Shown: piece by piece, positions 1 through 23,839 of the stretch | How positions within the stretch are numbered: position 1 is the stretch's first letter | Layout of the letters: each line of letters starts with the position of its first letter | IMG/VR virus record: IMGVR_UViG_3300045988_023824 | Span: 1-26,392 of that record | Direction: 5' to 3' (one strand) | From: a virus | Length of the DNA stretch: 26,392 bases | Notes under the pieces: model-generated | The model's database searches: none | What the model saw: only the letters and a program-made list of their open reading frames with translations | Told to the model about the DNA's origin: nothing | Translations under genes and position numbers: made by a program

Positions 1-326
1 TTTTTTTTTGTAAACTTATTGCAAGTATCAACGCTGAGTACCCTACACTCTTCGGAAAGGGAGATGAAGAAGAGACTAAGGAAAACCAAGGACAAACTGG
101 AAAGGAGGAAACTTCTGAAGAGCTTAATACAGACGAGACGATTAATCCTTTTACTCAAAAATGAAGCTGAATTATCTGAATAGATAAGGTGAGTGAAGTT
201 ACCAGATTTAATTGGCATCAGATATATGATATGCAGATTAAAGAGTTCCTGAATCTTATATGCTATGTTATAGATAAAGCTAATGAAGAAAATAGACAGA
301 TTGAAGAATGAAAAAGAAAACATTAA
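1..326 (+). CDS. C-terminal part of a late-region protein of unknown function (5' end outside window); readable only with TGA=Trp
   Basis: Codon phase 3,6,9... has no TAA/TAG from the window edge to TAA 324-326. Four in-frame TGAs (162,168,177,309) give ...PFTQKWSWIIWIDKVSEVTRFNWHQIYDMQIKEFLNLICYVIDKANEENRQIEEWKRKH. No family recognised. Confidence 0.5.
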
Positions 327-350
327 CTGTAACCTTTTTACTCATATTTG

Positions 351-377
351 GTACTAAGATAATATAAAAAAGTTACA
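351..377 (+). promoter_or_regulatory. Degenerate copy of the recurring intergenic motif (GTACT-N8-ATAAAAAAGTTACA)
   Basis: GTACTAAGATAATATAAAAAAGTTACA matches about 19 of 28 positions of GTACTTTGAGTGAGTAAAAAACTTGACA at 18732-18759. Like the other copies it is intergenic, plus-oriented and followed by a hairpin. Confidence 0.3.
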
Positions 378-380
378 TAT

Positions 381-407
381 AAAATAGGGAGTAAACCTCC
401 CTATTTT
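381..407. terminator. Intrinsic-terminator-like hairpin
   Basis: Perfect 11-bp stem AAAATAGGGAG / CTCCCTATTTT with loop TAAAC, flanked by A and T tracts, between TAA 324-326 and ATG 448. Confidence 0.6.
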
Positions 408-447
408 CATTAGCTACTAATATATAAAATAATATATTTTAACAAAA

Positions 448-936
448 ATGAATATTCAAGAATTAAAGTTCTCAAATTTAAGTGAGCTATTAAGAAAGTG
501 AGGAGATCTTATAATTTCTCTTTATAGACAGGAATTAGTTAAAACCAGATCTGATGACACTGGAGCATTAGGTAATAGTTTAAACTATATAGTTGAGACT
601 CAGGATGGAGACTATGAGGTTAATTTTAGCTTATTAGATTATTGAGAATATGTTGAAGAAGGCAGAGCTGCTGGTAAATTTCCTCCATTATCTGATATAA
701 AGAGTTGGATTAAAACTAAGCCAGTAATTCCAAGACCTTATAATGGCAAGTTACCTACTGTAGATCAACTTGCATATTTAATTGGAAGAAAGATACATCT
801 TCAAGGAACTCAAGGAAAACATCCACTTGCTAATACTCTAGAATATATAGAGAACAATTATATGGAACTTCTTGATGATGCTATAACTAAAGACTTACAA
901 GGACAAGTAGATTATTATTTATTTAAAGACTTTTAA
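448..936 (+). CDS. HK97 gp10-like tail-completion / head-tail joining protein, 162 aa (2 in-frame TGA)
   Basis: ATG 448, TAA 934-936, TGA at 499 and 643; checked codon by codon. DTGALGNSL ... LLDYWEYVEEGRAAGKFPP resembles the DTGxLrxS ... YaxyVEyGt signature of the HK97 gp10 family. Missing from the standard-code track because it is cut into three short pieces. Confidence 0.55.
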
Positions 937-938
937 AA

Positions 939-3119
939 ATGACATTTATACCAAGTAAATTAGGAATACCAAGAAGTACAGGAACATATCCTGTTAAATG
1001 GGAAAATCCAGGATGAGGTCTTACAGGAGTATATGATTATTGGCTATGAGGAGATGACTATTCAGAAGAGGGTCCATTAGATGTTACTATTTCTAATGCA
1101 AGTACAAGTGGTTGTACTATTAACTTTACAAATCCCTCAACTATTACAACAGACTCTTCTACAATATTTAGATTTTATCCAAAAGGACTGACTACTGCTC
1201 AATTAGAAGATACTATGCCAGTTTATCTTCATAGTAAAGCCCCTGGATATTATCCTGCAAATGGCAGTATAACAGTGCCTAATACTGGAGGTACTTATAC
1301 TGTTGAATATATATTAAGTAGAGCAGATATTATTAAATGAACTTGTGATGTAGTAAATGCTACTGCTTTAGTGAGTGTTGAGGTATTAGAATGAGATTCC
1401 TGCTCTATTAAGTTTAAGATTACAGTAAATGCTAATACTCAATGAAATACAGATTTAACTGGAACTATCCAATTAGGAGCTTATTATGAAACTAATAAGT
1501 TTATTTCTTATAGTTATGGCTTTACTATTGAAAAAAGCAATACTCCAGAAGATTTAAAGTTAGTAGTTACTCCATCATCTGGAACTTATGGAGCATCTGC
1601 TTTTGTTACTGAAGAATTCCATTTAAGTACAACTAAAGCAGAAGAAACAATTACCTCATTTAATGTTACCTGCCCTCAAGCTAGTGATATTAAAAAGGAT
1701 ATTGTTGATAACTATTTTGTATTAACTGTTCCAGAGAATAAAACTACTAATAATTTAGAGTTTAGTGCAATGGTTACTGCAACAACTTCTGGAGGTTATA
1801 CTCTTGAAGCTACAGTTCCAATTAAACAAGCTGCAACATCTTTAGTGATTCCTAATACTAATTATGAAGTAAGTTGAACTGCATCTACATTAAATATAAT
1901 TGGTACAGGCTCAAATAACTTAGATGATGTTGTATTTAGTATTCCTGTAGGTTGGATTAGTGGTCAGAAGTTCTCTGTGAATCCTCAAGGTGTAGCAACT
2001 ATTAGTTTGAACATTGCAGAAAATTCAGGTTTATCTTCTAGACAAGCAACTATTGGAGTATCTGTTATAAAGAATAGTTCAAGTATTATTAATTTATCTA
2101 TTAATATTACACAATCTGTTAAATCTGATATATCTCCTATTTGGAAAGATTATGTTTGGGAAGAAATTATCAGTTCTGATTTTATTGAATATCATCTAGA
2201 TTATGCAGGAGAAATGGTGTATGCAGGTAAAGCTTATAAATATCCTGAAACTGATAGAGTAGAGTTTTTATTAAATAATGTTGCTGAAAATTATCTATCT
2301 AATGGTATTATATTTAATACTTCTAAAACTATAATATCTCCAGAATATTTGAAACCATTTACTTTGATAACATCTAGTGGAAATGAAAAACCAATTACTT
2401 TCTTCAATGACTGGAGTTATAAAGATAGAGATCTAACTAAAGGCACTATGTTAAGTGATCCTATTACTGGTTTAGTTGATCCCAGGCAGTATTTAGTATC
2501 AAGTTGAATTCTACCAACTGGAACTGGAGTTATTAATAGATTCTTTTATATAGATGGAGTACAATCTGTTATGGATATTAGTTTAAATTCTGGAATTAAT
2601 GGATATACATATACAGAAGATTTAAGTAATAAATTATGGCCTTGTGGAAGCTATTTAATAGTAGGATTTGTAGAAGGTGGAAATATTAGTGATAGACAGA
2701 TTAGATATGATATAGATACTACAGGTAAAGATTATGTATTATATTATACTAATTCAGCAGGTGGATGGGATTCATTACTTGTTGAGGGTAATGTTAAAAA
2801 GAATGATGAGATTAAATCTGAAACATATACTCGTAAGGTATTAAATACATCACAAGAGTTTGCAAGAAATAAGTATTTGAATACTATAACTTCAAGCTGG
2901 ATTCTTTATACTGGTTATTTAAATGATATTCAAGCTTCTAAGATGTTTAATCTAATTGAGAGTACTAAAGTATATTTGCATAATCTTAAAGATAATACTA
3001 TCACTCCAGTATTGATTACTGATACAAATTGCGAATATAAAACTTATACTAATCAAGGTAAAAACAAGTTCTATTATACAATTAATGTAGAAGCTTCTCA
3101 AGATACTTATCGTAAATAA
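939..3119 (+). CDS. 726-aa tail/baseplate-associated protein with BACON-like Ig domains (7 in-frame TGA)
   Basis: ATG 939 to TAA 3117-3119. Track ORFs 1977-2507 and 2571-3119 are in the same phase, and 942-1976 has no TAA/TAG (checked by codon). TGA at 1014,1047,1338,1392,1443,1875,2505. The segment VGWISGQKFSVNPQGVATISLNIAENSGLSSRQATIGVSV (about 1947-2066) looks like a BACON/Ig domain. Confidence 0.6.
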
Positions 3120-3121
3120 TT

Positions 3122-6100
3122 ATGAGAAAGAATATAAAACTATTTATTGCAAATAAAGAGGTTGACTGTAGTGAGGGAATTAGTCTTCCTATAACTTATA
3201 CAGTTGAGGATTTCCAAAACCCCACTATAGTCAAGAACTCGTTTAGTAAAACGATTTCTATACCTGGCACAAAGAATAATAATAAGATTTTTGGAGAGAT
3301 TTATAAGTTAGATAGATTTCTCCATATAAAAGAAGGTAATTTCTCTGGAGTATATTTTGATCCTTCAAAACGAGTTGATTTTGGAATTTATAATAATGGG
3401 TATTTAGTTGAATCTGGATATATGCAATTAAATAGTATATCTATAAAACAAGCTGTCATTACTTATAATATTACTTTATATGGAGGATTAGGAGATTTCT
3501 TTTATGGACTTAAATATAAAGAAGATGGTACTATTAGGACTCTTGCTGATTTACAATACTTTGTAACTGATGAAGATGGAAATACACTTCCTGCTGATAC
3601 TGAACTTAATTTTTATATTAACAAAGATTTTGTAAATACTTGTTTTGACTGAAGTAAAACGAATGAAGGAAGTCAAATATATGATTATTTGACATTTATT
3701 CCAGCATATAATGGTTTATATGAAAACTTTGATAATGAAACTTGTTTAATAAATACTAATGAAAATAGCATATTTCCTACTAGTAAGACAGATTCAGGAG
3801 TTACATATACACCTTATAATGGGTATGGATTAGCTAAATTAAATAGAGCATATACAGAATGAGAGATGAGAGATCTTAGAAGTTATATGCAGAGACCAGC
3901 TTTAAAATTGAGTAAGTTAATTGAAACTATCTGTAGAAAAGAAAATTCTGGATATGATGTTATAATGGACCCAGATTTCTTTAATTACTCAAATCCATAT
4001 TGAAATAAAGCATTTGTTGCATTGCCTTTATTAGGATCTACTGAAGATGAAGAATCAGATAATATTACAGAGAATGCCAAACTTACTAAATATAATGATT
4101 TATTTTGGTGCGGATTAAAACCTGGAGGAACAACTACTTCAGTAAACTGGGGTAGATTTAGTGTTACAGGGAGTGATGTAATAGTTCCTGGGGAAGGTCA
4201 AGTAATTGATTTATCTGCAACTCCTGCTAATACTCTTGTTAATATTAATGTTGATTTTCAGCTATTTTATAATGCAAATGTTTCAGCAGGTAATGATTTA
4301 TATTTATCTTATGTAAGGAACGGAAGAGCTGGAAATATAGATTATAGGAATGATCCTTACAGAACATCAGTAACAGCACAGATATTGATATATGATGCTG
4401 AAGATATTTCATCTCCTAGTAGACCTATAGCATACTCTCCTTTATATAACTTTACAAATAAGATAAACACTCAAGTTCAATCAGGACCTGGAACTTGGTT
4501 TAATTATTATCCATTAACTGATGCGCCTGTAGAAGCTATTTTTGGTCACTTTGTAAAAGATAGTGGAAATAGGTATTATTTTAAAAGTGATAATAATACT
4601 AATACTTTCAGATTTACTGTAAAAGATATGCCTAAAGTCAATAAGATTTTAGTGAATATACAAATTGCAAGAAGAACTGAGAATTTATACAATCAAGATG
4701 CAGTATGACAATCAGATAATATGCATCCTAATAATGTCACAGCAAATAGAGTGGCTGGATGGTCAGAATTTTTATATGATGAAACTCAATATACATTAAA
4801 GGCTTCTTGGCCTTCAGCAGTTACTTCTGATGCTTTAATTACTAAGCAGAAATTATTAAAGACAGAACAATCTCCTGTTGATTACTTGTTAAGTTATGCA
4901 AAACTATTTGGATTATATTTTACAAAAGATATTGACAGTAAAACAATTAGAATATATACTAGAAATAATTTCTTTAAGAATATAATCTCTGATTGGAGTA
5001 AAAGGATTGATTATTCTAAAGACTTCAATGTAAATCCAATATTATTTGATAAGAAGTGATACACTATGTCATTAGAAACTCCAGAAACATATTATGCCAA
5101 GAAATATGATAGACAATATGATATAGATTATGGTCAGCAAAGATTAAACACTGGATATAATTTTAATAGTGATAATACTGATTTATATTCTGGAAATATA
5201 TTTCAAAATGTAGTATCCGCAAGAGATGCAGATAAGTATTTTAGAAATTTCTTTAATTCTGGAAATACTTATGTACCTGCATTTATGAATGATAATATTA
5301 CATATAGTTTATTTAATAGAACTTCTACAGAAGTAAAGACTAATGATCAGGATTTATATGGAGCTAATTTTATAGATCAAGGTAAGACTACAGAATGGTG
5401 GGATGTTCCTGGAAATGATATATTTGCAAAAACTTGTTTTTATACATTAGATAATAATGAACAAAGTCTTGAAGAGATAAAAAGTGCTTTATTATTTTAT
5501 AATGATGATGTTAATATGCAGGATATAAATGGAAATCCTATTTATTATTGGATTACTGATGATGTTACAGAAATGTCAGTTCTTAATGATGGAGAACCTT
5601 GTTATATCTATACTAATAGTGAAAATAATTCTGCAGGACAAAAAATAGCTATTAGAAGAAACATATTACCACAATTTATAAGATACACTATTTCTAGTAA
5701 TTTTATATCTTCATCTTGAGATTTTGGGGTTCCAAGAGAAATATACATTGATAAAGTTAGTTATTTAGAACAATCTACTTTATATAGTAGATTCTGGAGT
5801 GAATTTTATAATGATCAATTTGATGTAAATACTAAAAAAGTTACCTGCTTTGTAAGATTGGATGATTTAGATGTTAAGTATGATTTACTTAGACAGTTCT
5901 ATTATTTTGAAGATTCTTACTGGATACTTAATAAGATTGATGCTTATGATATTAATTCAGATTCTACAGTTAGATGTGAATTTATTAAAGTTCAAGATAT
6001 TAATAGTTATTTAGCTGGAGTTCAAAATCTAGGTGAATATATATCATTTGATGATTCAGATCCAGTTGTAGATTATAAAGCTGGGACTAAAAAGATTACA

Positions 6101-6562
6101 GTTACTTCTAATATTCCTTGAGAATTAGGATGATATAGTCCAAATGAAATTGTAAGCATTACACCTGAATCTGGGCAACCTGGAGAAACAGAATTAACAG
6201 TTACTTATAATGAGAATACTAAATATGACCAAAGAAGTTTCTACTTTAGTCTTTATAAACAAGGAGGCGTAGGTGGCCCTCAATGTATGTTTACTCAAAC
6301 TCCAGACCCAAATAAAACTATTCTTATTACAGGAAAGCTTCAAACTTCTACTGGAGGTATTCCTTCTGGTGTTAATCAGATTCTAACTGAAAATGATAAT
6401 TTCTTAAATGTCACTTATATGAGAGATGATGGAAGTTATAGAATATATGCTCAAAATGGAGTTCAATTTTTATTTAGAGTATCTGACGGACCAACAGGAA
6501 CAATTAAATATACAGAGAATTTAACACTAACAGAAGATACTGTTAAAAATATTACAATCTAA
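3122..6562 (+). CDS. 1146-aa large tail/baseplate structural protein with C-terminal Ig/BACON-like segment (8 in-frame TGA)
   Basis: Track ORFs 3122, 4022, 4721, 5066, 5858 and 6287 all share phase 2. All gaps were checked by codon and contain no TAA/TAG. TGA at 3650,3860,4001,4706,5057,5717,6119,6131; ends at TAA 6560-6562. Call rests on size, position and ITPESGQPGETELTVTYNENTKYDQRSFYFSL (6158-6253). Confidence 0.6.
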
Positions 6563-9234
6563 TGGCACAAACAGAAATTAAAAAGGTTATTAGTATTGAT
6601 ACTAAGTCAAGTAATAAGTCAATAAACTCTTTAAAGAAGGATATTGATGCGTTATCTAGTTCTCTGAATGATTTAGAGATTGGTACTAAGGAATATAATG
6701 AAACTCTTGCATTACTAGGTAAAAGACAATCAGAGTTCAATAAGATTAATGAGCAGATAGCAAGATCTTCAAGAACTACTGCTCAAAGGTTTGAAAGTGT
6801 AGCTAAAATATCCACTGGGTTGGCCAGTGGATATGGAGCTGCAACAGCTGCCATTACTTTATTTGGGAAAGAATCAGAGGATTTAAATAAAGTAATGATT
6901 AAACTACAGTCTACTATAGCATTAGTGCAGGGAGTTGGCGGTTTAAAAGATTTATTAGAAGAATTGCCCACTTTAGGTAATTGGTTTAAGAAATTAACTG
7001 ATTTTATTTCCCCATTTAATACAGGATTGAATAATGCTGCCAAAAACCTTAATCAGATTGATACATCTAAGCTTAATAGCATTGGCACATCTGTTGGTAA
7101 TGTTGGAACTGAATTAGGTAATATCTCTAAAGTAGTCAAGGATCTAGAAGGCACCAATATTAATTTTAAAGGAGGTATGATTCAAGGAGTAATGGGCACT
7201 CCTGCTGAAATATCTGCTACTAATAAGAGTGTATCTAATACGATTCCGATTATAGGTAAATTAAATGATAGTACTAAAGAAGTTCGTAATAGTATAGCTG
7301 TAACCAATGAGCAATTAGAAAGACTAAAAAGAAATTCTCCTGGGATAGCTGCTGCTCTTAATAAGCAAGCTGAAGCATCTAATGCAGCTGCTAAAGGTGC
7401 TGCAGAATTAGCTTCTGGCGTAAGTAAAGTTAAAACTGCACTTAAAACTATTGGTAATGTAACTGTATGAATTGCATTGGCTACAGCTATTGGAGTAGCC
7501 ATTAATAAGATAATAGAGTATATATCCTCAATAAAATCAGCTGAAAAGGAGGCTGCTGAATTTAGAAAGTCTATTACAGATACTACTAATCAGATTGCTT
7601 CTAAATCTATAGCTATCTTTAGAGAGTTACAAATAGCTTACGAAAGGGTTGGAGATTCTGCAGATGCTAAGCGTAAGTTTATAGAGCAGTATTCAGATAA
7701 GATTAAAGAGACTGGTTTAAATATTACTGATGTAAAGACTGCAGAAGATGCGTTTGTAAATAATACTGGTAATTATGTAGAAGCATTAACCGCAAGAGCA
7801 AAAGCTCAGGCTATTGAACAGGCTGCAATTAAGCTTTATGAGGAGTATTTAAACAAACGTACTGAACTGGAGAATCAAATTTCTGATACAAGTTTTGGAG
7901 AGGCATCTGCTTGGCAGGCTTTTAAAGCTACAGCAATGTTCTGAAAAGATTATTCTAATACTATTTATGAGTACACTAAGAAAAATAAAGAGAATACTTA
8001 TAAACAGTTGGATGATTTAAATAAAGACATTGAGAAAAGGCTTAAAAAGCTATTTGAGGATGTAGCAGATACTAATAAAAAGTATGGTGGGTTCTTTAAT
8101 ATTCCAACTATTACAAAGAACACTACTGAAGCTAAGAAGGTAATTAATGAATTTGATGAATGGCTTCAAAAGAGATTAGAGGATAAAGACCCAGTAGATG
8201 AACTTGAAGATGAATATATTAGACTATTAGCACTAGCTATTAAAAATAATAGAAGTCTTGAAGAAGTTGAGGCTTGGCATCAAGAAGAGCTGAAGAAAAT
8301 TAGAGATAAGGCTAGAGAAGATGAAGAAAATGCAAGAAAAAGTGCTGCAGATAAAGCTTGAGATGATCTTCAGACTGAATTAAAAAGAATGCGCGAGGCA
8401 AGGTATGATATAAAAGATACATCTTTAGAAATTCCTAAAACTCAATATACACAAGGATTTGCCAAAATATTTGGATTAAGCGGTGAGTTCTCTTATTCAA
8501 GCAAAAAAGACATAGAGGGATATAAAGATCGTTTATTAGGAACAGATACTGAAGAAGGTTCTATAGATAAATATCATAATCAAATAAAAACAAGATTGGA
8601 GGAGCAGAAGTCTTTTCTATTAAAACAATTAGAAAATGAGACTTTAACAGCTGATCAGAGAAAACTTATTAAACTAGAATTAGATTCTATTGATGAGCAA
8701 TTAACTGAAAATGAAATAGACAGAGAAAATAAGAAAAACAAAGTTAGAGAAAATGTTAATAAACAATATCAAGAATCTATAAAAGCTCGTCTTGATCTAG
8801 CATCAAAGGTTGCAGGAAGTATGGCAACTATATGGGGAGAGGAAAGTAAAGTAGGTAAAGGATTTGCAACAGCTCAAGCTTTAATTGATACATATAGTGC
8901 AGCTAACAGTGCTTATTCTGCAATGGCAGGAATTCCAATTGTTGGTCCAGCTTTAGGTGCAGCCGCTGCTGCTGCAGCAATTGCTGCGGGTATAGCTAAT
9001 GTTAAAAAGATCTGGGAAGTAGACGAAACTAGTGGTGCATCTGCTTCAGGAGCATCAGCATCAGTATCTGCTCCAGCTGCTTTAAATACAGCTCCTGTTG
9101 AATATACTCGCAACCTATTAGGAGATAAAGAAACTGACCTTTTAAACGAACCAGTTAAATGTTATGTAGTTGAGAGTGATATTACTACTGCTCAAACTAA
9201 AGTTGCAGTTACAGAATCAAATGCAAGTTTCTAA
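6562..9234 (+). CDS. 890-aa coiled-coil tape-measure-like or internal ejection protein (3 in-frame TGA)
   Basis: The start overlaps the previous stop (TAATG). Track ORFs 6562, 7477, 8008 and 8389 are co-phased; TGA at 7468,7942,8359. Long heptad-like K/E-rich stretches and a Gly/Ala-rich hydrophobic segment GIPIVGPALGAAAAAAAIAAGIANV near the C-terminus. Confidence 0.55.
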
Positions 9235-10022: not shown

Positions 10023-10028
10023 TTAATT

Positions 10029-11278: not shown

Positions 11279-11292
11279 AAAAATTTTTAAGT

Positions 11293-12195: not shown

Positions 12196-12233
12196 TTTCA
12201 ATAGAGTTTAACTTTAAATAAGATTGAAATTAT

Positions 12234-12847: not shown

Positions 12848-15370
12848 ATGGCAAACGAAACTGAAAAGACAATTCTTCCTTATCTTAATGTCCTTGAAGT
12901 TGAAACAATAGATAAGTCAAATGTGACTAAAGTTATTGTTATTGACAAGGATGATGAAGTTAAGGTTATGGATGGTTCTCAGTTAGCTACTAATAGCTAT
13001 TTTGATCTTCAGGATAAACCTGAAATCAATGGCATTGAGTTAAATGGTAATATGACTTCAGAAGAGTTGGGATTAGCGTCATCTGAAGATATTGTTACTA
13101 TTAATTCTGAGTTAGAGCAAATAAAGAGTACTATTCCAAGTGCTGAAAATATTGATAATCAGATAACTGAACGATTAGCTGATTATCCAACTAAAGAAGA
13201 GGTTACAACTGAAATTTCAGATGCAGTTGCCAATAAAGCCGATAAATCTGAGATACCAACAAAAACTTCACAATTAACTAATGATAGTGGATTTATTAGC
13301 AGCTTAGATGGATATGCTACTGAAAAATGAGTTGAAGATAATTATCTTACAAAAGAAGCTGCTGAAAGTGCATTAAATTCTAAACAGAATAAATTAAACC
13401 AAGGTGACGGTATAGTAATTGAAGAGAATACTATTTCTGCAGATTATAATACTATTCGTAACAAACCATCTTTAAATGGAACTGAATTATCTGGAGCAGC
13501 TTCAATAGTACCTGCCATTAATATTCAATCAGTCCCATCTAAAGTTACTTTAGCTCCTGTATTTGGTAATCAAACTGGAGAAGCAGTTGAACTTCCAATA
13601 TATAATACAGAGACTAATCAAGCTGGTATTGTTAATGGTCCTCTATATGCACAATTAGCAGATAAATATACTAAAGCTGAAATTGATGCTTTAAATACAG
13701 CTATTAATAAAGAGATAGCTTCAAAACAGGGAACGCTTACAGCAGGAAAGAATATATCTATTATAGATAATGTAATCTCTGCTTTTGAGAATCATTTCTT
13801 ACTTAATTTAGATGAGAATGATCCTGTAAGACAGAAACATATCTATGACTTTATTAGAACTAATCTGGACTTCTATTTATTCTGCCAGATTACATATAAA
13901 GGTGATATTATAGTTATTCCTGTTGCAACTATTGAGCATCCTGAAACTATTGATTTATATGGCTATTATTTCCAAGATAATGGTGTATTAGTAGTTATTA
14001 ATGCAATCTTAGTAAATAATGGTAATATGACTGTTAAAGTTACTGAGGTTGATCTTACTAATAAAGGATATACTAAAGAAGAAGTAGATGCCAAACTTGA
14101 GGAAAAACAAGGAGTATTTACTCCACAAGCTCCATTAGCTTTTAATGAAGATAAATCCCAATTATCTGTAGATTTATCTGGATACCAACCAGTTGGTGAT
14201 TATGCTTTAAAGAGTGATATTCCAACTAAAGTTAGTGAGCTTACTAATGATTCTAACTTTGTAACTGAAGCAGAGGTTTCTGGAGATTTAGCAGGTAAAG
14301 CAGATAAGACTTATGTTGATGAGCAGCTTGCTACTAAACAGCCTGTAGGAGATTATGCAACAAAAACAGAACTTGCTGGTAAAGCTGATTCTTCTGTGGT
14401 AGAATCTTTATCTACTCAAGTAGCAACTAATACTTCAGATATATCAATTATTAAAACAAAACAAGAAGAAGATGGAGATAAGATTGATTCTCTTGATAAA
14501 GAGATGGCTACTAAGCAAGATTTACTTGTAAGTGGAACTAATATCAAAACAATCAATAGTCAGTCTTTACTTGGAGAAGGTAATATAGAAATTGAAAGTG
14601 GCTCTAATATTCCATTTCTATTTATAAATTCCACTACTCATCTTTCTGGAGATTTCGCTGCTGTTAAGAATGCTATAGCTAATAAAACACCATTTGAGCT
14701 TTATTATGTAAATATTCTAGGTTATGGTGATATAGCAGCTCCAGAAGTATGTTTTGTTTCAGGAGAAAATATTCAAGCTACTTTCCATTTTGAAAGTACT
14801 ACAGCTAATCATACTGTAGTTCAAACTACTATTACTCCAACTGGAGTATCAGCAGATACTAGTTATCATAGTTATCAAGAGCAATTAGTTAGTGGTACGA
14901 ATATAAAAACCATAAATGGACAGGATATTCTTGGTTCTGGTAACTTAGATGTTTCAGGAGGTGGAGGTACTACTGATTATAATCAATTGACCAATAAACC
15001 TCAAATCAATTCTGTTGAACTTAGTGGTAATAAGAGTCTTGAGGATTTAGGTATACCAACTAAGACATCTGAGCTTACTAATGATAGTGGCTTTTTAACT
15101 TCTATTCCTGATGAGTATGTTACAGAAACTGAATTAAATGCAGGATTAGGAAATAAACAAGACACTTTAGTTAGCGGAACAAATATTAAGACAGTTAATG
15201 GAGAAAGCTTGTTAGGTAGTGGAAATATAGATATTGAGAGTGTTTCTAATCCAGTTACTTATGGAAGTGGAACTCAACCACAAGTTCATACTATTCTTGT
15301 GGTAACTCAGTCTGAATATGATGCTATTTCAAGTAAAGATCCAAATACTCAATATTTAATTGTAGAGTAA
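12848..15370 (+). CDS. 840-aa tail fibre protein with repeated fibre motifs (1 in-frame TGA)
   Basis: Track ORFs 12848-13330 and 14027-15370 are co-phased, and 13331-14026 has no TAA/TAG (checked by codon). TGA 13328 is the only Trp codon in the gene. Three copies each of IPTK(T/V)S(Q/E)LTNDS(G/N)F, LVSGTNIKT(I/V)N..S(L/I)LG.GN(I/L) and NKP.(I/L)N..EL.G. Confidence 0.75.
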
Positions 15371-15371: not shown

Positions 15372-16298
15372 ATGAATATTCGAGATAATTTAAAAGCTTT
15401 TTATGTAGGTAACAGACAAGGTACTGCCATTTATGTGGGCAGTACCAAAGTCTGGCCTATTGATCCTTGTAATCCTATAACCTTTATAGACCCAGTATTT
15501 GGAAGTCAAGTTAAAATACATTTATTAGATGATAAACCTGTAACGGATTGTAATATAGACAGTGTAAAAAGCTGATATTATCCAAGTCCTTCAAATGACT
15601 CTGCATTTACTGGTTCTGCTGTAGTTACTAACGAGGATTATAAAAAATTCAATGTTCCTGCATCTAATGATGATAATGTGGTATTTATGAGACTTTTTCA
15701 AAGTTGCGCCGATTTAACTACATTTGATACTGGAATGGTTGAAGGTGGAGAAGATAAATTAGGACTGTTATACAATATGGGCGGTTTTTATTGTACATTA
15801 CAAGGATGCACTTCATTAACTACTATTATAGGAGATTTTGATGGTTCTAAGATATATAATTATAACTGGATGTTTGGAAATTGTAGATCTTTAATTACGG
15901 CTCCAAATATAACATTTCCTCATAGGGATTATTTAGTAACTCATACAGTTAATGTAAGCAGATTATTTGATGGTTGTACTTCATTAACCACCATACCTTT
16001 ATATGATGCATATTCTTGGGAATATTTAAGTCTTACGTTTAATGGTTTATCTAATTTAGAGAATGTTGGAGGGTTTAAAGATATAGGAAAATGCTTTACT
16101 ACTAACTCCGTTGCTGGATTAAATTTTGAAGATAGCCCAAAGTTAACTAATCAATCAGTACAGAATATAATTAATAATTTAGCTACTCCAAGAGTATCAC
16201 TTGCTGGAGTTCTAAAACTTGCAGAGAATGTTTACAATTCATTAACAGAGGAACAAAAATCACAAATCACCAGTAAAGGCTGGTCAGTAACATACTAA
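15372..16298 (+). CDS. 308-aa BspA/DUF285-type leucine-rich-repeat protein, probable receptor-binding protein (1 in-frame TGA)
   Basis: Track ORFs 15372-15575 and 15678-16298 are co-phased, with TGA at 15573. Repeats FQSCADLTTF, LQGCTSLTTI, FGNCRSLITA and FDGCTSLTTI. The C-terminus LTEEQKSQITSKGWSVTY is paralogous to the end of 17719-18708. Confidence 0.6.
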
Positions 16299-16528: not shown

Positions 16529-17203
16529 ATGATTATATTAAAGAATACTAAGAATACTCAGACCTTCTATGTTAGTAAGAAATGCGGTATTGAGACAGCT
16601 CAGCTTCCTGTTGGTTCTTATACAAAGATTGAAGCAGATGCGAGATTTCAACCTAAAGGTAATTACATTTCCGAAGATAAGGCTGTTGAAATAATTGATG
16701 AGCAAATTAATTCTCAGTTGGATGTTATACTTGAACCTAAGTTAGAGCCAATTAAGAATGATATTACTGAATTAGAAACATCTAAGATGGAAGTATTTCA
16801 AGTAAACTCTCCTATGTCATTTAATAGAGAGGGTGAAGATTTACATCTATCTATTGATCTTTCTAACTATGCTCTCAAGTCAGATATTCCAAGTACTGAG
16901 GATTTTGCTACTAAAGAAGAGCTTGCATCTGTTGAAAATGAAGTTGGAAATAATTCTTCTAAGATTACAGCTATTGAAAGCAAGCAAGAAGAGGATGAAC
17001 TAAAGATTGATGCATTAGATAAGGAAGTTGGGACATTAGATGCAAATAAAGCAGACAAATCGGAACTATCTAATTATGTAACATTAGAAGTATATAATGC
17101 TAAGGTTTCAGAATTAGAAGCTGCTATTCAAGCTTTACAGGCACAAATCGGAACTATCTCAACTACTCTTGATACAATTAATGGTGAAATTCCAAATGAA
17201 TAG
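16529..17203 (+). CDS. 224-aa coiled-coil tail-fibre protein
   Basis: Track ORF 16502-17203. I prefer ATG 16529 because it does not overlap the upstream stop at 16519-16521. [19 protein letters not shown] is paralogous to IKTKQEEDGDKIDSLDKEM in 12848-15370. Ends in TAG. Confidence 0.6.
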
Positions 17204-17717
17204 AGTATTAACAAATTATCCTAACTATAGTGTATCTTCTACAGGAGATGTATATAGTAACCCATTGACTTTTAAAGATTCTATTGGAAGAACCAGAAAA
17301 CAAATACATAAAAAGCTAAAACAGCATATAGATAAATATGGCTATAATTATGTAATTCTAGTATCTGGCTTAGATAAACCTAAAGCTATTAAAGTTCACA
17401 GACTAGTAGCAGAAGCATTTATTCCAAATCCTGACAATCTACCATATGTTAACCATATAAATGAAAATAAGACAGATAATAGGGTAGAAAATTTAGAATG
17501 ATGTGATGCAAAGTATAATAATACATATGGAACTAGAATAAATAGATGTATTGATAAAATTAGTAAACCTGTAGGGCTATTTATTAATGATTTACTAGTT
17601 AAAACATATAAAAATGCAATTGAAACATCAATAGATGGGTATACTCATAGTAGAGTTATAGATTGTCTTAAAGGAAGAACAGACACTTATAAAGGGGTAA
17701 AATTTAAATATATCTAA
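17196..17717 (+). CDS. HNH homing endonuclease (NUMOD4-like N-terminus plus HNH_3-type core), 173 aa (1 in-frame TGA)
   Basis: ATG 17196 overlaps the fibre stop (ATGAATAG). [14 protein letters not shown], then [35 protein letters not shown] followed by TGA 17499 at the conserved W of NLEW. Continues 72 codons to TAA 17715-17717, ending KGVKFKYI. Confidence 0.85.
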
Positions 17718-17718
17718 T

Positions 17719-18708
17719 ATGGCAAATACAATTTCTGATAAATTAACGTATCTTGAAGGTACTAAGAGTGCCATTAAAGATGCTATTGTAGCTAAAGGTG
17801 TTGCTGTATCAGATTCCGATACCTTTAGAAGCTATGCAGATAAGATAGGACAGATTTCTGGAGGTGAGGTGTTTGATGTTACTAAAACAGGATTAACGTT
17901 TGCTTATTGTAATATGCATCATAGTCAATTTGGGAAACTAAATTGAACTATAAATCCAAGTACTGCAGATATTTCATATTTATTTAGCAATAGTAACTTA
18001 CCTGATAGCTATATTGATTTAGGTAGTAAATTAGATACTTCTGTTTCTTATTTAGCAAAAGAGAGTTTTAAACAAGCTAATATTCACCAAATAGCAATAA
18101 ATTCAGGTCAACAGTTTAATAACCCTTCAAGTATGTTTGAAAGCACTATATCTCCAAATTCAACTCTGCAAGATATAGTTTTTAATATAACAGAATCATA
18201 TATTCCTTTTGTTTTATATTTTACAAACATAAGTACTACTGGTACAATTACAGTAAATATTAAAAATGGAATTAATGCATCACTAGTTTACTTTATGTAT
18301 GGATATAATGGCAACGAAATATGTGATAAAATAGTATTCAATGGATATAATTCTAGTACATTATCATTAGAGCAATTCTTTTGGACTGGTAGTACAAATC
18401 TAACTAAAATTCCAGAAATAGATTTGACAGCTGTTGATAACTATACATTTAGCGAATTAATAACAGGTGGAGAAATGACTTCTATAACTACATTTGGAGG
18501 GATTACAAATTTAAAGGTAGATCTTAATTTGCAGTGATTACCAAATCTTAATGCTGAGTCAGTCGATAATATCTTAAATAAAGCAAATGATTTAACAGGA
18601 AATCCTACTCAAACTATTACATTTAATTCTGCTGTTTATAATACCCTTACTGAGGAACAGAAATCATTAGCTACATCTAAAAACTGAACTTTAGCAAGTT
18701 CAAACTAA
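17719..18708 (+). CDS. 329-aa fibre/receptor-binding protein, second DUF285/BspA-like paralogue (3 in-frame TGA)
   Basis: Track ORFs 17719-17946 and 18133-18537 are co-phased and the gaps were checked. TGA at 17944,18535,18685; TAA 18706-18708. The N-terminus MANTISDKLTYLEGTKSAIKDAIVAKGV is fibre-like. C-terminus VYNTLTEEQKSLATSKNWTLASSN. Confidence 0.55.
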
Positions 18709-18723
18709 TTGTCAGTTTTTATT

Positions 18724-18785: not shown

Positions 18786-18861
18786 TTATTTTAATACATT
18801 AGTAAATTGGTTTATATTTTAAGAAAAAGATATGTAAAACTAATGTAAATTGCTGTAAAAT

Positions 18862-19254
18862 ATGAATTATACTTTATTAATGCAAAATACAACTACTAAA
18901 GAAGTTTATATATTTAATCTTGAAAATCAGAATTATGCTGAAAATATCTACTATAAGTTTGATATTACATTATCTGATGATATGCCTGATGGTGAATATC
19001 AGTATATTCTGTTTAGTAATCCAAATAAACTTGAAGTAATTGTAGATGTAAATAATCCTATGCAGTCAGAGCTATATGGTAATCCAGTTATTCTGGTAAC
19101 TTATGAAAATACTCTTACTACAGGAACACAGATATTAGTTGCTGGTAAACCTATACCTGTATTGAGTTCAGGACTAATAAGAGTTGGAGATTATCAGAAT
19201 AATAAATACCAATACGATAAACAAAACAAATATACGGCTTATGAGCGAAAATAA
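18862..19254 (+). CDS. Hypothetical protein, 130 aa
   Basis: Intact standard-code ORF and the first gene after the 18724-18785 element. No motif recognised. Confidence 0.45.
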   Translation: MNYTLLMQNTTTKEVYIFNLENQNYAENIYYKFDITLSDDMPDGEYQYILFSNPNKLEVIVDVNNPMQSELYGNPVILVTYENTLTTGTQILVAGKPIPVLSSGLIRVGDYQNNKYQYDKQNKYTAYERK

Positions 19255-20323
19255 AACAAAAGTACAATTAAGTGCAATTGATCCTGTTGTAGTGTCAAAT
19301 TTAGTACTTCCTGTAGAATCGAGAAAAAGGGGTTCTGATTGGATTTCTTGGGGTGAAGATAATCGCTATCCTGTATATTTATGGGATCTATATTTAAATG
19401 TAGCTACTCTTCAATCTATCATTAATGGGACTGCTGACTTTATTGTTGGTAATGATGTTATATGTAATGCACCAGGATTTGAAGTAACTGTAAATAAGAA
19501 AGGTGAGACTATTATGGATATTATGCGTAAAGTATCTAAAGATAAGATGATTTTTGGAGGATATGCTTTACAAATAATTAGAGATATGTTAGGTAGAGTT
19601 TCAGAGATCTATCATCTTGACTTTATGAAGATTCGTTCTGATGAAAAGAATGAAGTATTCTATTATGCCGATGATTGGTCTGCTTGGTCTATTAAAGCTA
19701 TCAAATATCCAAAATTTAATTATTCAGATGATAATCCTACAAGTGTTGTTTATAATAAGGGCTATATAACAAGAAAAGTATATCCAGTCCCTGTTTATGG
19801 TGCAGCTATCCTATCTTGCGAAACTGAGAAGAATATTAATGAGTTCCATCTAAATTCTCTTCATAACGGATTTATGGGTAATATTATCATTAACTTTAAT
19901 AATGGACAGCCTACAGACGAAGTTAAAGAAGAGATTGAGATGAATATTAATGAGAAATTCTCAGGATTTCAAAATGCTGGTAGAGTTCTTATTTCATATA
20001 ATGATGATGAAACAAATAAGACTACTATTGAGCGTTTAGATTCTGATGATTTTGATGAGAAATATAGTGCTTTATCTGATAGAACAAGAGAACAGATATT
20101 CTGTGCATTTAGAGCTAATCCTAACTTATTTGGAATAAACTCTGATTCTACTGGATTTAATGAGCAAGAGTTTAATTCATCATTTAAACTATATAATAGA
20201 ACGATGATTAAACCTATGCAAAAAGAGATTTGTGATACATTTGACAAAATCTTTGGTATGAAGAATTCTATCACAATTACCCCATTTAGCTTAGATACAG
20301 CTGATTCTAAAATAGTTGAATAA
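19241..20323 (+). CDS. Putative portal protein, 360 aa
   Basis: Track ORF 19184-20323. I prefer ATG 19241 (MSENKTKV), which overlaps the upstream gene by 14 nt. GSDWISWGEDNRYPVYLWDLY...LQSIINGTADFIVG resembles N-terminal portal motifs of Bacteroidota phages. Five TGG, no TGA. Confidence 0.55.
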   Translation: MSENKTKVQLSAIDPVVVSNLVLPVESRKRGSDWISWGEDNRYPVYLWDLYLNVATLQSIINGTADFIVGNDVICNAPGFEVTVNKKGETIMDIMRKVSKDKMIFGGYALQIIRDMLGRVSEIYHLDFMKIRSDEKNEVFYYADDWSAWSIKAIKYPKFNYSDDNPTSVVYNKGYITRKVYPVPVYGAAILSCETEKNINEFHLNSLHNGFMGNIIINFNNGQPTDEVKEEIEMNINEKFSGFQNAGRVLISYNDDETNKTTIERLDSDDFDEKYSALSDRTREQIFCAFRANPNLFGINSDSTGFNEQEFNSSFKLYNRTMIKPMQKEICDTFDKIFGMKNSITITPFSLDTADSKIVE

Positions 20324-20324
20324 T

Positions 20325-21008
20325 ATGGAACAAATGGATTTTAGAAATGTACTTCTAATTAGTGAAGATTATATCAAATCTGAATCTAACTTAGACAATA
20401 ATGTTTCTGGTAAATATCTTCAGTCAGCAATTAAACTTGCACAAGATATTGAGCTTCAGTCATTAATTGGAACTAAGCTCTTAGAAAAGATTCAGAAATT
20501 AGTAATTGATTGGAAAGATCCAAATAAACCAGTTCATCCAATAGAACCTCCTATTTATGATCCTACTTCAATAGATGACCCAGAAAATCATAGATATAAA
20601 GAATTGCTAGATTACTATATTCAGCCTTATTTACTTTATCAAGTATTAAGTGAGATTACTATACCCATCTCATTTAAGCTGAGTAATTTTGGGGTTATGA
20701 GGACTGATGATGAGAAAGATTTAACTTCTGATATTAGCCAAGTTAATCTTATTAAGAAATATTATAGAGATAAAGCAGATTTCTTTAAAACGAGATTACA
20801 AAATTGGGTAATTACATATTATAATGATTTTCCTGAATTGTATTCTTATAAACCTCTTAAAGATATGTATCCAAATATGTATTCAAGTTCATCTTGTACT
20901 ATTTGGTTAGGTGGAGCTAGAGGTAAAGGTTGGAGATATAATTCTTGTGAAGGTCCTCTTCAAAGAGCTTATGATTTTCCTTCAAGTAACAATAAAAAGA
21001 GTAAGTAA
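20325..21008 (+). CDS. Putative head-tail connector/adaptor protein, 227 aa
   Basis: The track start at 20316 is TTG, so I prefer ATG 20325 just after the portal stop. The position after the portal and LISEDYIKSES...YLQSAIKLAQDIELQSLIGTKL resemble gp6-like connector N-termini. Weak call. Confidence 0.4.
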   Translation: MEQMDFRNVLLISEDYIKSESNLDNNVSGKYLQSAIKLAQDIELQSLIGTKLLEKIQKLVIDWKDPNKPVHPIEPPIYDPTSIDDPENHRYKELLDYYIQPYLLYQVLSEITIPISFKLSNFGVMRTDDEKDLTSDISQVNLIKKYYRDKADFFKTRLQNWVITYYNDFPELYSYKPLKDMYPNMYSSSSCTIWLGGARGKGWRYNSCEGPLQRAYDFPSSNNKKSK

Positions 21009-21010
21009 TT

Positions 21011-21436
21011 ATGACCTACTATGAGATAATTAGCAATTTAAAAGCTTGTGCATTAGAAGAGCCAAACATCAATTTTGTAGGAAGTAAAGACATTTATGAG
21101 TTAAATAGCTTACCAACTATTGAGTATAATGTGTTCTATATAACACCTAATACTTTTAGTGTAGATGAAGATACTATTACTTACTCTTTAAACCTATACT
21201 TCGTATCAAGATGGGATGAGACTGATAACAACCAATTGGAGGAACAGTCAGCAGGTATGCTTGCACTGCAAAATATAATTAATCGTTTTAATAACCTATA
21301 TCCAGAAGTTGAAATAGCTTATCCTTTAATTTATACTCCATTCTATCAAAAGTTCAAAGATATTACCTGTGGAGTGTTTGTTAGAGCTGATTTCCAAGTT
21401 GACAACACATTAGGCTTATGTCAAGACAGTATGTAG
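21011..21436 (+). CDS. Hypothetical neck/head-completion protein, 141 aa
   Basis: Intact ORF ending in TAG. The functional guess rests on position only. Confidence 0.3.
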   Translation: MTYYEIISNLKACALEEPNINFVGSKDIYELNSLPTIEYNVFYITPNTFSVDEDTITYSLNLYFVSRWDETDNNQLEEQSAGMLALQNIINRFNNLYPEVEIAYPLIYTPFYQKFKDITCGVFVRADFQVDNTLGLCQDSM

Positions 21437-22002
21437 TTTATATTCATACTTTTCCAAATGGTAAAAGATATGTTGGATTAACCACTCAGTCAGTAAATAG
21501 TAGATGAAGAGGTGGAGAAGGATATAAAGATCAATTTGTTTACAGACCAATTAAAAAGTACGGTTGAAACAATATTAAACATACTATTTATTATGTAAAT
21601 AGTGAATCGGAAATGAAATATCTTGAAAAATACTTCTTTAGCTATTATAATACTACAGATTTAAGATTTGGTTATAATAGAACTGACACAAGTAATCATC
21701 CTATAGTTTCTAATGAAACTAAAGTTATTATTTCTGAATTTGCTAAAACTAGAATAGGAAATAAAAATCCATTTTATGGGAAGCATCATTCAGAAGAAAC
21801 TAAGGAATTAATACGCAAGAAAAATCAAAACTATGGAACTAAAGCTATTAGTCAATACACTTTAGATGGAAGATTTATAAAATCTTATAAAAGTATAAGA
21901 TCAGCAGCAAGAGAGTTAAACATAACTTCTTCTTTAATATCTTCAGTTTTAAGTGGCAGACAAAAACAAACTAAAGGATATACCTTTAAGTATAATATGT
22001 AA
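21418..22002 (+). CDS. GIY-YIG homing endonuclease, 194 aa (2 in-frame TGA)
   Basis: ATG 21418 overlaps the upstream gene by 19 nt. MSRQYVVYIHTFPNGKRYVGLTTQSVNSRWRGGEGY...KKYGWNNIKH, with TGA at 21505 and 21565. Co-phased with track ORF 21613-22002, which carries NUMOD3-like GKHHSEETKELIRKKN and the tail TKGYTFKYNM. Confidence 0.85.
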
Positions 22003-22658
22003 TGGAAAATAAATTAAATTGGTTTGGTAAAGTATTAGAATGGGTTGATAAATATGGATTACTAAAGATATTTAAAGCAGGGATTGGATTAATATTTATA
22101 TCCTATGTAATGGTTATTACACTTAATCCCTCTATTGTTTATAATAAGGTTGTAACCTATATTGAACAAACTCACAATTCTAAAACTATTGCAAGAAATG
22201 AAGCAACTTTAAAGATTAAATATAAGCTTAAAGAATTGCTTCAAAGCACAAATGCTGATAGAGCTTGGGTTATTGAATATCATAATGGAACTACTGGATT
22301 AGGAGGACTTCCATTTACCTATGGAGTAATGAATGCAGAGGAAGTAAAACCAGGAATAAGACCTGTAAGTAGCCATTATAAAGACTTCCTCTTATCTGAC
22401 TATACTTCAATTATAGAGTTTTCTAAGAATGATGGATGGTTTGGTAATATAGATAGTTTAGAAGCAGATGATCCAAGATTATATTATGCATTTAAATCCA
22501 ACAGAGTGAATGAAATAGCAGTATTTTATTTAAAGACTGAGGATAAAGATATTGGCATTTTAGGTTTGTCATTCTGTGATACACCTATGCCTTATGATAC
22601 TTGAGTACATCTAAGAAGAGCTGGAATACAGATAAGTATAATTTTAAATAAAATATAA
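22002..22658 (+). CDS. 218-aa N-terminally membrane-anchored protein of unknown function, first gene of the lysis cassette (1 in-frame TGA)
   Basis: Start overlaps the previous stop (TAATG). TM segment GLLKIFKAGIGLIFISYVMVITL. TGA 22602 extends the protein by 18 codons to TAA 22656-22658, one nt before the holin-like ATG. Confidence 0.45.
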
Positions 22659-22659
22659 T

Positions 22660-22818
22660 ATGAAATATTGGTTAAAATATGTAATAGTAGTTGTACTATT
22701 AATGATTGCATTTTTGTTAATTAAAGTAATTCCTTTTTGGATTACTATTAGTTTAACGTTATTTGGAGCAGTGTGCTATTTTATTTACCTTTATAAACTG
22801 CATAATTCATATAAATAA
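22660..22818 (+). CDS. Holin-like small membrane protein, 52 aa, two predicted TM helices
   Basis: MKYWLKYVIVVVLLMIAFLLIKVIPFWITISLTLFGAVCYFIYLYKLHNSYK. Below the track's size cut-off. Its stop overlaps the endolysin start (TAATG). Confidence 0.6.
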   Translation: MKYWLKYVIVVVLLMIAFLLIKVIPFWITISLTLFGAVCYFIYLYKLHNSYK

Positions 22819-23270
22819 TGAAGTATTTCACACTCGAAGAATTAACAAGATCTGATACTGCTTCAATTAAGCATATAGATAACACTCCAGATGAGAGTAT
22901 AACAGAGCACCTGATAGAGTTGGTCGAGAAGCTTTTAGACCCAATAAGAGAGAGATGGGCAAAGTATTGTGATGACAATCAGCTTGGCAATGCAGGCATC
23001 AGGATTTCCTCTGGTTTTAGAAATAAGGAGCTTAATAAAGCAGTAGGAGGATCTTCAACTTCTGCTCATTTAACAGGGTATGCAGCAGATATATCTCCAA
23101 TTAATGGTAATATGAAAGTATTCCAAAGTTGGATTGCTGAAGCTATTGAAGAATTAAATTGAGACCAGTTGATATATGAAAAGCCTAAGAATGGTATAGC
23201 AAGTTGAATACACTTGGGATTAAAGAATAAAGACGGGATGCAAAGACGACAGAAATTTACTATTATATAA
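22818..23270 (+). CDS. Endolysin, zinc peptidase M15 (VanY / L-Ala-D-Glu peptidase type), 150 aa (2 in-frame TGA)
   Basis: FTLEELTRSDTA...IDNTP, then SSGFRNKELNKAVGGSSTSAHLTGYAADI (H-x6-D). TGA 23160 and 23205 are followed by WIHLG (third His). TAA 23268-23270. Confidence 0.85.
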
Positions 23271-23839
23271 TGTTTTACTATTGTTATAAAATAATTTTAA
23301 CTGCAGGTACATTAAGAGGCAAGTATTATATTGGGAAAAGGATTTATAGAGGTAAAGACATAAATAAAGATCCATATAAAGGATCAGGAAGGATTATTAC
23401 TAATTATTACAAAAGATTCCCTAATGCATACCAAAAGATTATTTTGGCAACTTGCACTAATGCAGATGAATTATCTAAATTAGAATACAAACTAATTGGA
23501 GATAAATGGGACACTGATCCTATGTGTTTAAATTTGAAACCTGGAGGAGAAGGAGGCAATTACGGAGTCAAATTTAATTCTGAATGAAAGAAGAAACTGT
23601 CTAATTCTAATAAGGGAAAGAAACATAATTGCCCAGAATCTTGAAGAGATAAAGTAGATGCTCATAACAAACAAAGATGTCGTAAAGTAGCTCAGTATGA
23701 TTTAGATGGTAATTTTATTCAAGAGTATGAAAGTTGCACAGAAGCAGCCAAATCTGTAGGAACTGATAGAGGAGCTATTAGTAGAGTATGTGGTGGATTA
23801 GCAAATACAGCTAAAGGATTCAAGTGAAGATATGTTTAA
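23270..23839 (+). CDS. GIY-YIG homing endonuclease, 189 aa (3 in-frame TGA), paralogue of 10640-11278
   Basis: YCYKI...YYIGK, YKGSGRIITNYY and CLNLKPGGEGG are shared with 10640-11278. TGA at 23585,23642,23825. C-terminal tail AKGFKWRYV. Start overlaps the endolysin stop (TAATG). Confidence 0.8.

Follow-up and report, generated by a model that had tools for sequence, protein, structure and literature searches.

TGA is a sense codon, very probably for tryptophan, throughout a ~31-kb tailed phage without a recognizable means of reading it

A stretch of 26,392 nucleotides (nt) from IMG/VR virus record IMGVR_UViG_3300045988_023824, analyzed here at its full length and termed the window, forms part of the genome of a tailed phage in which TGA is a sense codon genome-wide. 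UGA is very probably read as tryptophan throughout this phage, on both strands and in early-looking, structural and lysis genes, with UAA and UAG as the sole terminators; the phage is without any recognizable means of reading UGA. An overlay of relatives' contigs indicated that the window (G+C content, 30%) and a further 4,591 nt make up a circularly permuted genome of ~31 kb. This overlay was based on contigs of 30,974 and 31,204 nt, which were retrieved via a 572-amino-acid (aa) protein encoded on the minus strand. The part of the genome outside the window contains small genes and genes for an HNH endonuclease, an HTH protein, a putative small terminase and TerL. Close relatives, as referred to below, were about 20 loci from IMG/VR and SRA assemblies with 74-98% protein identity. 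The standard-code reference set consisted of 24 homologues of a 1146-aa structural protein of this phage, a protein with hundreds of homologues; the DNA of each was checked for the absence of in-frame stops, the use of TGA as a terminator and the encoding of Trp only by TGG.

The first-pass annotation of this DNA had proposed a comparison of translation tables 4 and 11. With table 11, there were 33 plus-strand open reading frames (ORFs) of at least 100 aa, totaling 6795 aa, the longest of 679 aa. Reading TGA as sense resulted in longer ORFs and more total amino acids (24 ORFs, 7958 aa, longest 1148 aa), while a control with TAG as sense yielded no comparable gain (35 ORFs, 7093 aa, longest 679 aa). 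The fused genes of the first-pass annotation were recovered at the same coordinates, as for 939-3119 (7 TGAs), 3122-6562 (1146 codons and 8 TGAs) and 6562-9234 (3 TGAs), and stop-to-stop ORFs demonstrated that frames were interrupted by TGA only and never by TAA, TAG or a frameshift. Its total of 39 TGAs in 14 genes was reproduced as 35 TGAs in 13 genes with real starts plus 4 in an ORF at 3-326; simple counting from stop to stop arrives at the same totals but includes the TGAs at 10634, 12225, 21388 and 21400, which are located upstream of likely starts. TGA was the stop in none of the 34 gene models of the whole genome (TAA, 29; TAG, 5), and these models contained 44 TGA codons in addition to 77 TGG codons.

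The same TGA sites were present in independent assemblies from several samples, excluding sequencing errors. The source samples are SRR15809054, SRR18842631, SRR3740074, ERR13245355 and the IMG 3300045988 set. A single alignment of the 1146-aa protein to a standard-code homologue of 1186 aa (locus L021) covered all 8 TGAs, and sequence past the TGAs stayed aligned to full-length standard-code homologues. Relatives' contigs were of complete-genome size, and automated gene calls on some contigs of the clade were already full-length, in agreement with the TGA-as-sense models. An interpretation of the TGAs as genuine stops, whether in a decaying prophage, between separate genes or as a result of assembly errors, has nothing in its favor beyond the table 11 ORF picture and is excluded by the restriction of frame breaks to TGA, the conservation of the sites, the continued alignments and the contig sizes.

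On the evidence of aligned sequences, the residue encoded by TGA is Trp. Among the close relatives, the partners of window TGA codons were TGA (201 times) and TGG (40 times), followed by TTT, AAT and TAT, and those of window TGG codons were TGG (529 times) and TGA (41 times), followed by TAT and TTT; Gly codons were not prominent among either set of partners in these relatives. Across the 39 sites, the non-TGA partners were W (33%), Y (12%), F (11%) and L (9%), and TGG was found in at least one relative at 24 sites. Tabulation of the residues that homologues carry at TGA columns, which had also been proposed, revealed an enrichment for Trp: in the 24 standard-code homologues, the share of W was 31% at TGA columns and 29% at TGG columns against a background of 1.6%. 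Individual columns were consistent with this trend. W was present in 22/24 of these homologues at column 3860 and in 17/24 at 5057, in 17/17 standard-code relatives at columns 162 and 168 and in 12/16 at 309, and column 643 was W (TGG) in 18 relatives, including standard-code loci L021 and L022. Columns 7468, 7942 and 8359 were variable and uninformative as to the residue.

Five sites had initially been put forward as pointing to Trp, and four of these stood in full. TGA 17499, placed at the conserved W of an HNH_3 motif, has W opposite it in the solved HNH endonuclease I-HmuI (PDB 1u3e). TGA 23825, in the tail KGFKWRYV, is matched by TGA (7) or F (5) in relatives of the clade and by TGG in standard-code L020, while relatives have W (3) or F (2) at TGA 21505. 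The C-termini of two paralogues align as had been described, with TGA 18685 opposite TGG 16281, and 18685 is TGG in 7 relatives. For TGA 23205, in the M15 endolysin, the identification of Trp was supported by TGG in relatives, L020 among them; the accompanying claim, that the His of WIHLG is the third zinc ligand, is a prediction from the sequence, as the alignment to PDB 1lbu covers the first two ligands only. The H..D zinc motif lies upstream of both TGAs of this gene, and the third His lies downstream of both. Other residues would have precedents, since code-25 phages, with TGA as Gly, exist in human and animal microbiomes (PMC10746230) and UGA is also the selenocysteine codon. Column statistics exclude both: Gly is essentially absent from TGA columns, where W, Y and F dominate; TGA exchanges with TGG and not with GGN or TGY; and 0/39 structural-protein sites align to a Cys pattern.

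Recoding had originally been described for the plus-strand late genes. This limit did not hold, as TGAs were also detected in TerL, the HTH regulator, small genes upstream of TerL and a minus-strand ORF, indicating that recoding is genome-wide and affects both strands; most genes in the 4,591-nt part outside the window have in-frame TGAs. The minus-strand ORF (53 aa, 24157-24318) has a TGA at codon 22 that is kept in 16/16 relatives, with in-frame conservation on either side of it. A separate start of the second half just after the TGA is excluded, as several relatives have ATA instead of ATG as the following codon. Loci L048, L049 and L050 (49-57% identity) are likewise TGA-recoded and tRNA-less, while relatives L020-L047 use the standard code, with TGA accounting for 15-24% of stops in standard-code relatives. 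The recoded clade is, therefore, broader than the close relatives and is nested in a standard-code family associated with Bacteroidales. The features of the window and its immediate surroundings are as follows.

1-9, plus strand: T9 slippery run (ATG TTT TTT TTT, the ATG being just upstream of the window) in the gene after TerL; a -1 ORF opens here.
3-326, plus strand: -1 frame extension ORF with TGAs at 162, 168, 177 and 309.
448-936, plus strand: 162-aa protein resembling tail completion/Neck1 proteins (phrog_5); TGAs 499 and 643.
939-3119, plus strand: 726-aa structural protein; TGAs 1014, 1047, 1338, 1392, 1443, 1875 and 2505; one gene in the calls for L001.
3122-6562, plus strand: 1146-aa structural protein; TGAs 3650, 3860, 4001, 4706, 5057, 5717, 6119 and 6131.
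6562-9234, plus strand: 890-aa protein resembling a tape measure; TGAs 7468, 7942 and 8359.
9429-12758, plus strand: head module, almost TGA-free, comprising protease (S78_2), scaffold-like protein, major capsid protein and a 174-aa protein.
10640-11278, plus strand: NUMOD-type homing endonuclease-like gene; TGA 10991.
12848-15370, plus strand: 840-aa tail fibre-like protein (Phage_tail_C); TGA 13328, kept in 11/11 relatives.
15372-16298, plus strand: 308-aa protein; TGA 15573 (TGG in 4 relatives), with the C-terminal W encoded by TGG 16281.
17196-17717, plus strand: HNH_3 homing endonuclease (PF13392); TGA 17499.
17719-18708, plus strand: 329-aa paralogue of the gene at 15372; TGAs 17944, 18535 and 18685.
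19241-21436, plus strand: TGA-free block of portal, DUF6712 protein and a 141-aa protein.
21418-22002, plus strand: homing endonuclease with NUMOD1/NUMOD3 and I-HmuI NUMOD-like domains, GIY-YIG-like from its N-terminal sequence and with no Pfam GIY-YIG match; TGAs 21505 and 21565.
22002-22658, plus strand: 218-aa protein, possibly a lysis partner, with a membrane segment at its N-terminus; TGA 22602, kept in 17/17 relatives.
22818-23270, plus strand: Peptidase_M15_3 endolysin; TGAs 23160 and 23205.
23270-23839, plus strand: NUMOD1 homing endonuclease-like gene; TGAs 23585, 23642 and 23825.
23846-23880, no strand assigned: bidirectional intrinsic terminator, as read from the sequence (GGAGGG-loop-CCCTCC, then a T run), between the convergent units.
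24157-24318, minus strand: 53-aa ORF, with its TGA at plus-strand positions 24253-24255.
24390-26108, minus strand: 572-aa helicase-like protein (P-loop-like, DEYH and QxxGRxxR motifs); 0 TGA, 5 TGG, stop TAG.
26252-26283, minus strand: Bacteroidota-type promoter TTTG-N20-TAnnTTTG, leftward.
26342-26373, minus strand: second copy of the promoter element, leftward.
Genome 26422-26453, plus strand: third promoter copy, rightward, just past the window end.

The use of TGA differed between genes. This unevenness was not significant when tested within the single genome (permutation p=0.09), and the signal was clear only across the clade, for which the share of TGA was expressed as TGA/(TGA+TGG) except where stated.

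Major capsid protein: 1/55.
Portal: 2/72.
DUF6712 protein: 0/58.
141-aa protein of the portal block: 0/17.
174-aa head protein: 2/42.
Scaffold-like protein: 1/11.
Helicase-like gene: 0/67.
TerL: 13/26.
HTH protein: 9/10.
Homing endonucleases: about 60-70% TGA of Trp codons, the highest share.

For most genes, TGG-to-TGA differences (25.3%) equaled the rate of G-to-A synonymous differences at Lys/Glu/Gln codons (25.3%), and TGA is effectively a neutral synonym of TGG in these genes. The corresponding figures were 4.8% and 26.9% in the head, portal and helicase genes. TGA, which makes up 0-5% of Trp codons across the clade in the capsid, portal, neighboring head and helicase-like genes, is about five-fold counter-selected there, a figure whose direction is clear but which is approximate because the TGA-poor genes were selected with knowledge of the data and the relatives are non-independent. 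The genes that select against TGA are few and mostly highly expressed.

The first-pass annotation had suggested looking through the rest of the genome for a tRNA(UCA) and for release-factor genes; none was found in the complete ~31-kb genome or in any of the relatives examined. With default settings, ARAGORN detected no tRNA, either in the window and the other part of the genome or in 20+ recoded relatives. Relaxed (80-90% thresholds), intron and mitochondrial modes produced only spurious calls in coding regions or in the terminator hairpin at 23846-23880, a structure that explains the weak sraA and pseudo-tRNA matches there. Nothing was found with Rfam at the gathering threshold or at E<=5. 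Searches of Pfam and PHROGs yielded no translation-related match, only phage structural, lysis, endonuclease, terminase and HTH proteins; no gene for RF1 or a tryptophanyl-tRNA synthetase (TrpRS) was among these matches, and the small proteins had almost none. Two candidates were rejected. A hairpin at 26205-26223 was considered as an anticodon arm, but its loop, ACTTTCA, is without U33 and without UCA in register. The TGA-free leftward gene for the 572-aa protein was considered as a code-switch factor, but homologues with 45-50% identity are widespread in standard-code genomes; one homologue, with 46% identity, is on a Hymenobacter chromosome, and one has a Helicase_C_2 match. Suppressor tRNAs were found in 35% of code-4 phages (TGA as Trp) in one survey (10.1101/2021.08.26.457843) and in 15% in another (PMC11210395), and hidden mechanisms were suggested by these surveys.

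The host is probably a member of the Bacteroidota, as judged from Bacteroidota-type promoters, the absence of Shine-Dalgarno (SD) motifs and the presence of standard-code relatives in Bacteroidales genomes. Bacteroidota promoters have the consensus -33 TTTG / -7 TAnnTTTG, and translation in this phylum starts without an SD sequence. Three near-identical 32-nt elements, TTTGGAAATTnAA...TAT[A/C]TTTG, were located in a 375-nt divergent intergenic region, two leftward and one rightward, and account for three of the four genome-wide matches to the promoter consensus; an SD core was present upstream of only 2/33 genes. These elements are divergent and lie between the leftward helicase unit and a rightward unit of about 29 kb. 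A scan of GTDB genomes detected 24 loci with relatives of the 1146-aa protein, all standard code and most in Bacteroidales/Bacteroidia metagenome-assembled genomes, among them contigs of 218 kb (Alistipes) and 122 kb (Bacteroidales). These relatives are distant (27-38% identity), and a few come from bins with a Clostridia or Eubacteriales label; the GTDB representative genomes yielded no prophage copy of the recoded clade. The closest standard-code relatives, L022 (k141_393909, 86 kb) and L021 (NODE_310, 89 kb), are on contigs much larger than a ~31-kb genome. In L022, the structural module occurs together with integrases and a replication module of another kind (YqaJ, DEAD helicase), and this locus may be a prophage within a host contig or a mosaic element. 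The integrases of L022 and recoded L050 have Pfam Arm-DNA-bind_5 and Phage_integrase matches, a type that we take to be typical of Bacteroidota. Use of the standard code by the host is plausible but not proven.

A 1146-codon gene with 8 UGAs is beyond leaky read-through and TGA is neutral in most genes, so that efficient decoding of UGA is needed; as TGA is present in both divergent transcription units, the capacity for this decoding should exist when infection begins or shortly afterwards. The infected cell would, in our proposal, already have or rapidly gain an efficient UGA-reading Trp-tRNA activity and/or be without effective competition from release factor 2 (RF2). We prefer a supply of this activity by the cell, either from an unrecognized Bacteroidota lineage in which UGA is Trp or ambiguous or from a suppressor tRNA encoded by the host chromosome or by a resident element, and give this source about an even chance. 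An undiscovered host lineage of this type is not far-fetched, as new code-4 gut lineages are still appearing, in the Eggerthellaceae (PMC13462651) and the Patescibacteriota (PMC13092985). Reprogramming of a standard-code Bacteroidales host by an unrecognized phage factor, a kind of system described by Borges et al., is possible but distinctly less likely. The factor could be a small early anti-RF2 protein, an enzyme editing or modifying tRNA-Trp(CCA) or a highly non-canonical tRNA, and recoding would serve to time or limit expression. Sister lineages that are standard-code (pro)phages in Bacteroidales genomes, the under-use of TGA (36%) and its absence from the helicase gene across the clade, the many small ORFs without known function and the detection of suppressor tRNAs in only 15-35% of code-4 phages, together with the hidden mechanisms suggested there (10.1101/2021.08.26.457843; PMC11210395), are all in line with such a factor. 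There is, however, almost no gene set that could act before a switch, as TGAs occur in both units, including the small leftward ORF, the HTH regulator and TerL, and ordinary homologues of the sole large early gene without TGA are found in standard-code genomes. Avoidance of TGA in the late head genes is the opposite of late-gene gating, the neutrality of TGA in most genes requires efficient decoding and no tRNA-like RNA was detected even at relaxed thresholds. Provision of a suppressor tRNA by a helper phage is improbable.

Slightly more improbable still is a known native code-4 host from outside the Bacteroidota, such as the Mycoplasmatales or the gut Eggerthellaceae Equivita and Gorillivita, whose code the phage would simply share. 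The lack of a suppressor tRNA and of TGA stops, the genome-wide recoding and a phage G+C content of 30%, at the lower edge of the 31-40% of code-4 gut Eggerthellaceae (PMC13462651), would suit such a host; the promoters, the lack of SD motifs and the location of relatives mostly in Bacteroidales genomes would not. The M15 endolysin argues against the wall-less Mycoplasmatales. As an argument against code-4 hosts in general it is weaker, owing to a 2026 report of code-4 gut Eggerthellaceae that retain an envelope, with cell-envelope genes mostly intact (PMC13462651). The fraction of TGA among Trp codons is also low for a native code-4 host, at 0.36 compared with 0.78-0.95 in Mycoplasma phages P1 and MAV1.

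Several observations weigh against a UGA = Trp assignment sustained by the cell. TGA has a share of only 36% among the Trp codons, whereas all other NNA/NNG pairs of the genome are 66-97% A-ending; in Mycoplasma phages P1 and MAV1, which have a similar G+C content, the share of TGA is 95% and 78%, respectively. TGA is present in 19/34 gene models, or about 21/36 if the -1 extension ORF and the 53-aa ORF are included, a pattern that fits recoded phages in standard-code hosts, for which 26-71% of genes have in-frame stops (10.1101/2021.08.26.457843). The host assignment, drawn from promoters, SD scarcity and relatives' genomes, is indirect, and the approximate nature of the five-fold figure also counts here. 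UGA = Trp lineages have been reported in the Bacillota, Pseudomonadota, Verrucomicrobiota, Actinomycetota and Patescibacteriota (PMC13462651, PMC13092985), and no such Bacteroidota lineage is on record. Under-use of TGA together with its avoidance in the capsid, portal and helicase genes fits a recent or costly reassignment, whether the decoding activity is supplied by the cell or by a phage factor.

Part of the TGA evidence comes from the ORF at 3-326, which is the -1 continuation of the gene following TerL; the 0-frame gene stops at TAG 181-183. Conservation of the -1 ORF was detected by tblastn in about 30 related loci, standard-code ones included, and the ATG-T9 run has a counterpart at this position in L021 and L022, which use the standard code, and in L048 and L050, which are recoded. 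This conservation indicates that, as judged at the sequence level, ORF 3-326 is a real coding sequence produced by a conserved programmed -1 frameshift. A similar arrangement is known from the gpG/GT tail-chaperone frameshift, but three other genes separate the frameshift gene from the tape-measure-like gene in this phage. A hairpin with a T run (TAGGGAG-taaac-CTCCCTA-TTTTC) at 385-408, between the frameshift ORF and the next gene, looks like an internal terminator or attenuator inside the long rightward unit.

The gene order of the phage is unusual: TerL is followed by the frameshift gene and then, in window positions 448-23839, by the genes for the Neck1-like, 726-aa, 1146-aa and tape-measure-like proteins, protease, scaffold, capsid, fibre-like protein, portal and lysis proteins, such that the portal gene is ~20 kb downstream of TerL. 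A megablast search with 24 kb against GenBank phages yielded no matches, and a search with the portal protein yielded only about 26% identity to Nonlabens phages. Five homing-endonuclease-like genes (HNH_3 or NUMOD, some GIY-YIG-like) are present in the 31-kb genome, the fifth at genome positions 27161-27655. Relatives differ in which of these genes they have and where: in L002 an HNH gene separates the 726-aa and ~1120-aa genes, and in L048 the capsid gene is followed by a GIY-YIG gene. The paralogues at 15372-16298 and 17719-18708 (~310-330 aa) share a C-terminal TEEQKS...SK.W motif and may be receptor-binding proteins, since DUF285/LRR_5-type matches are found at similar positions in related loci.

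Annotation of the window depends on table 4. Table 11 splits tail, lysis and endonuclease genes, and the terminase gene outside the window, and deprives the endolysin of its third zinc ligand, a role predicted for that His. With about 45 genes, standard-code sisters that share roughly 30-65% protein identity and selection against TGA that is measurable in particular genes, the clade is a compact test case for how the 65-85% of code-4 phages without a suppressor tRNA decode UGA. A tentative claim to novelty attaches to either of two outcomes, an unrecognized Bacteroidota host that reads UGA natively or ambiguously as Trp or a tRNA-gene-free reprogramming by the phage, through RF2 inactivation or editing of tRNA-Trp(CCA) to UCA. 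The former would add one more bacterial phylum to those with a UGA = Trp reassignment; under the latter, avoidance of TGA in the capsid, portal and helicase genes would mark a real cost of decoding.

The first-pass view that recoding of this kind is already known holds. TGA-to-Trp recoded gut phages were reportedly described by Ivanova et al. in 2014. Code-4 gut phages have since been documented by Yutin et al. in 2021 (PMC7886860) and by Borges et al. (10.1101/2021.08.26.457843), including the ~34-kb Garnet and Amethyst clades, and the literature covers TGA-to-Trp recoding, small recoded clades (~34 kb) and the common lack of suppressor tRNAs; the added value of the present phage is a complete tRNA-less clade that makes the decoding question testable. 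Code-4 gut phages share with this phage in-frame TGAs at Trp, fragmented table 11 calls, close standard-code relatives and, in 65-85% of those reported, the lack of a detectable suppressor tRNA. Garnet and Amethyst have a similarly small genome, and the predicted host phylum of Garnet is also Bacteroidota. In contrast to these phages, recoding is not concentrated in structural genes here; TGA is used in regulators, TerL and the small leftward ORF but avoided in the capsid and portal genes. Jade phages carry a gene for RF1 or TrpRS, neither of which was found in this phage. The model of Borges et al., with a phage-encoded suppressor tRNA(UCA), RF1 or TrpRS and standard-code-compatible early genes, has a counterpart here only in the helicase-like gene (0/67). 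Mycoplasma phages P1 and MAV1 resemble this phage in having no suppressor tRNA, no TGA stops and TGA in all functional classes, but TGA makes up 78-95% of their Trp codons and occurs in 82-93% of their genes, compared with 36% and about 57% here, and the present phage differs from them in its endolysin and Bacteroidota-type promoters. Code-25 phages of Absconditabacteria/Gracilibacteria (PMC10746230) also use TGA as sense and match the code of their host without phage machinery, the residue being Gly in that case and Trp in this one. TAG-to-Gln (code 15) crAss-like and Lak phages (PMC9523058) differ in codon and amino acid and commonly have suppressor tRNAs, and TAG is a genuine stop in the present phage; these phages, whose recoding has been validated by metaproteomics (PMC9523058), are, like the clade described here, a lineage with Bacteroidota hosts that has reassigned a stop codon.

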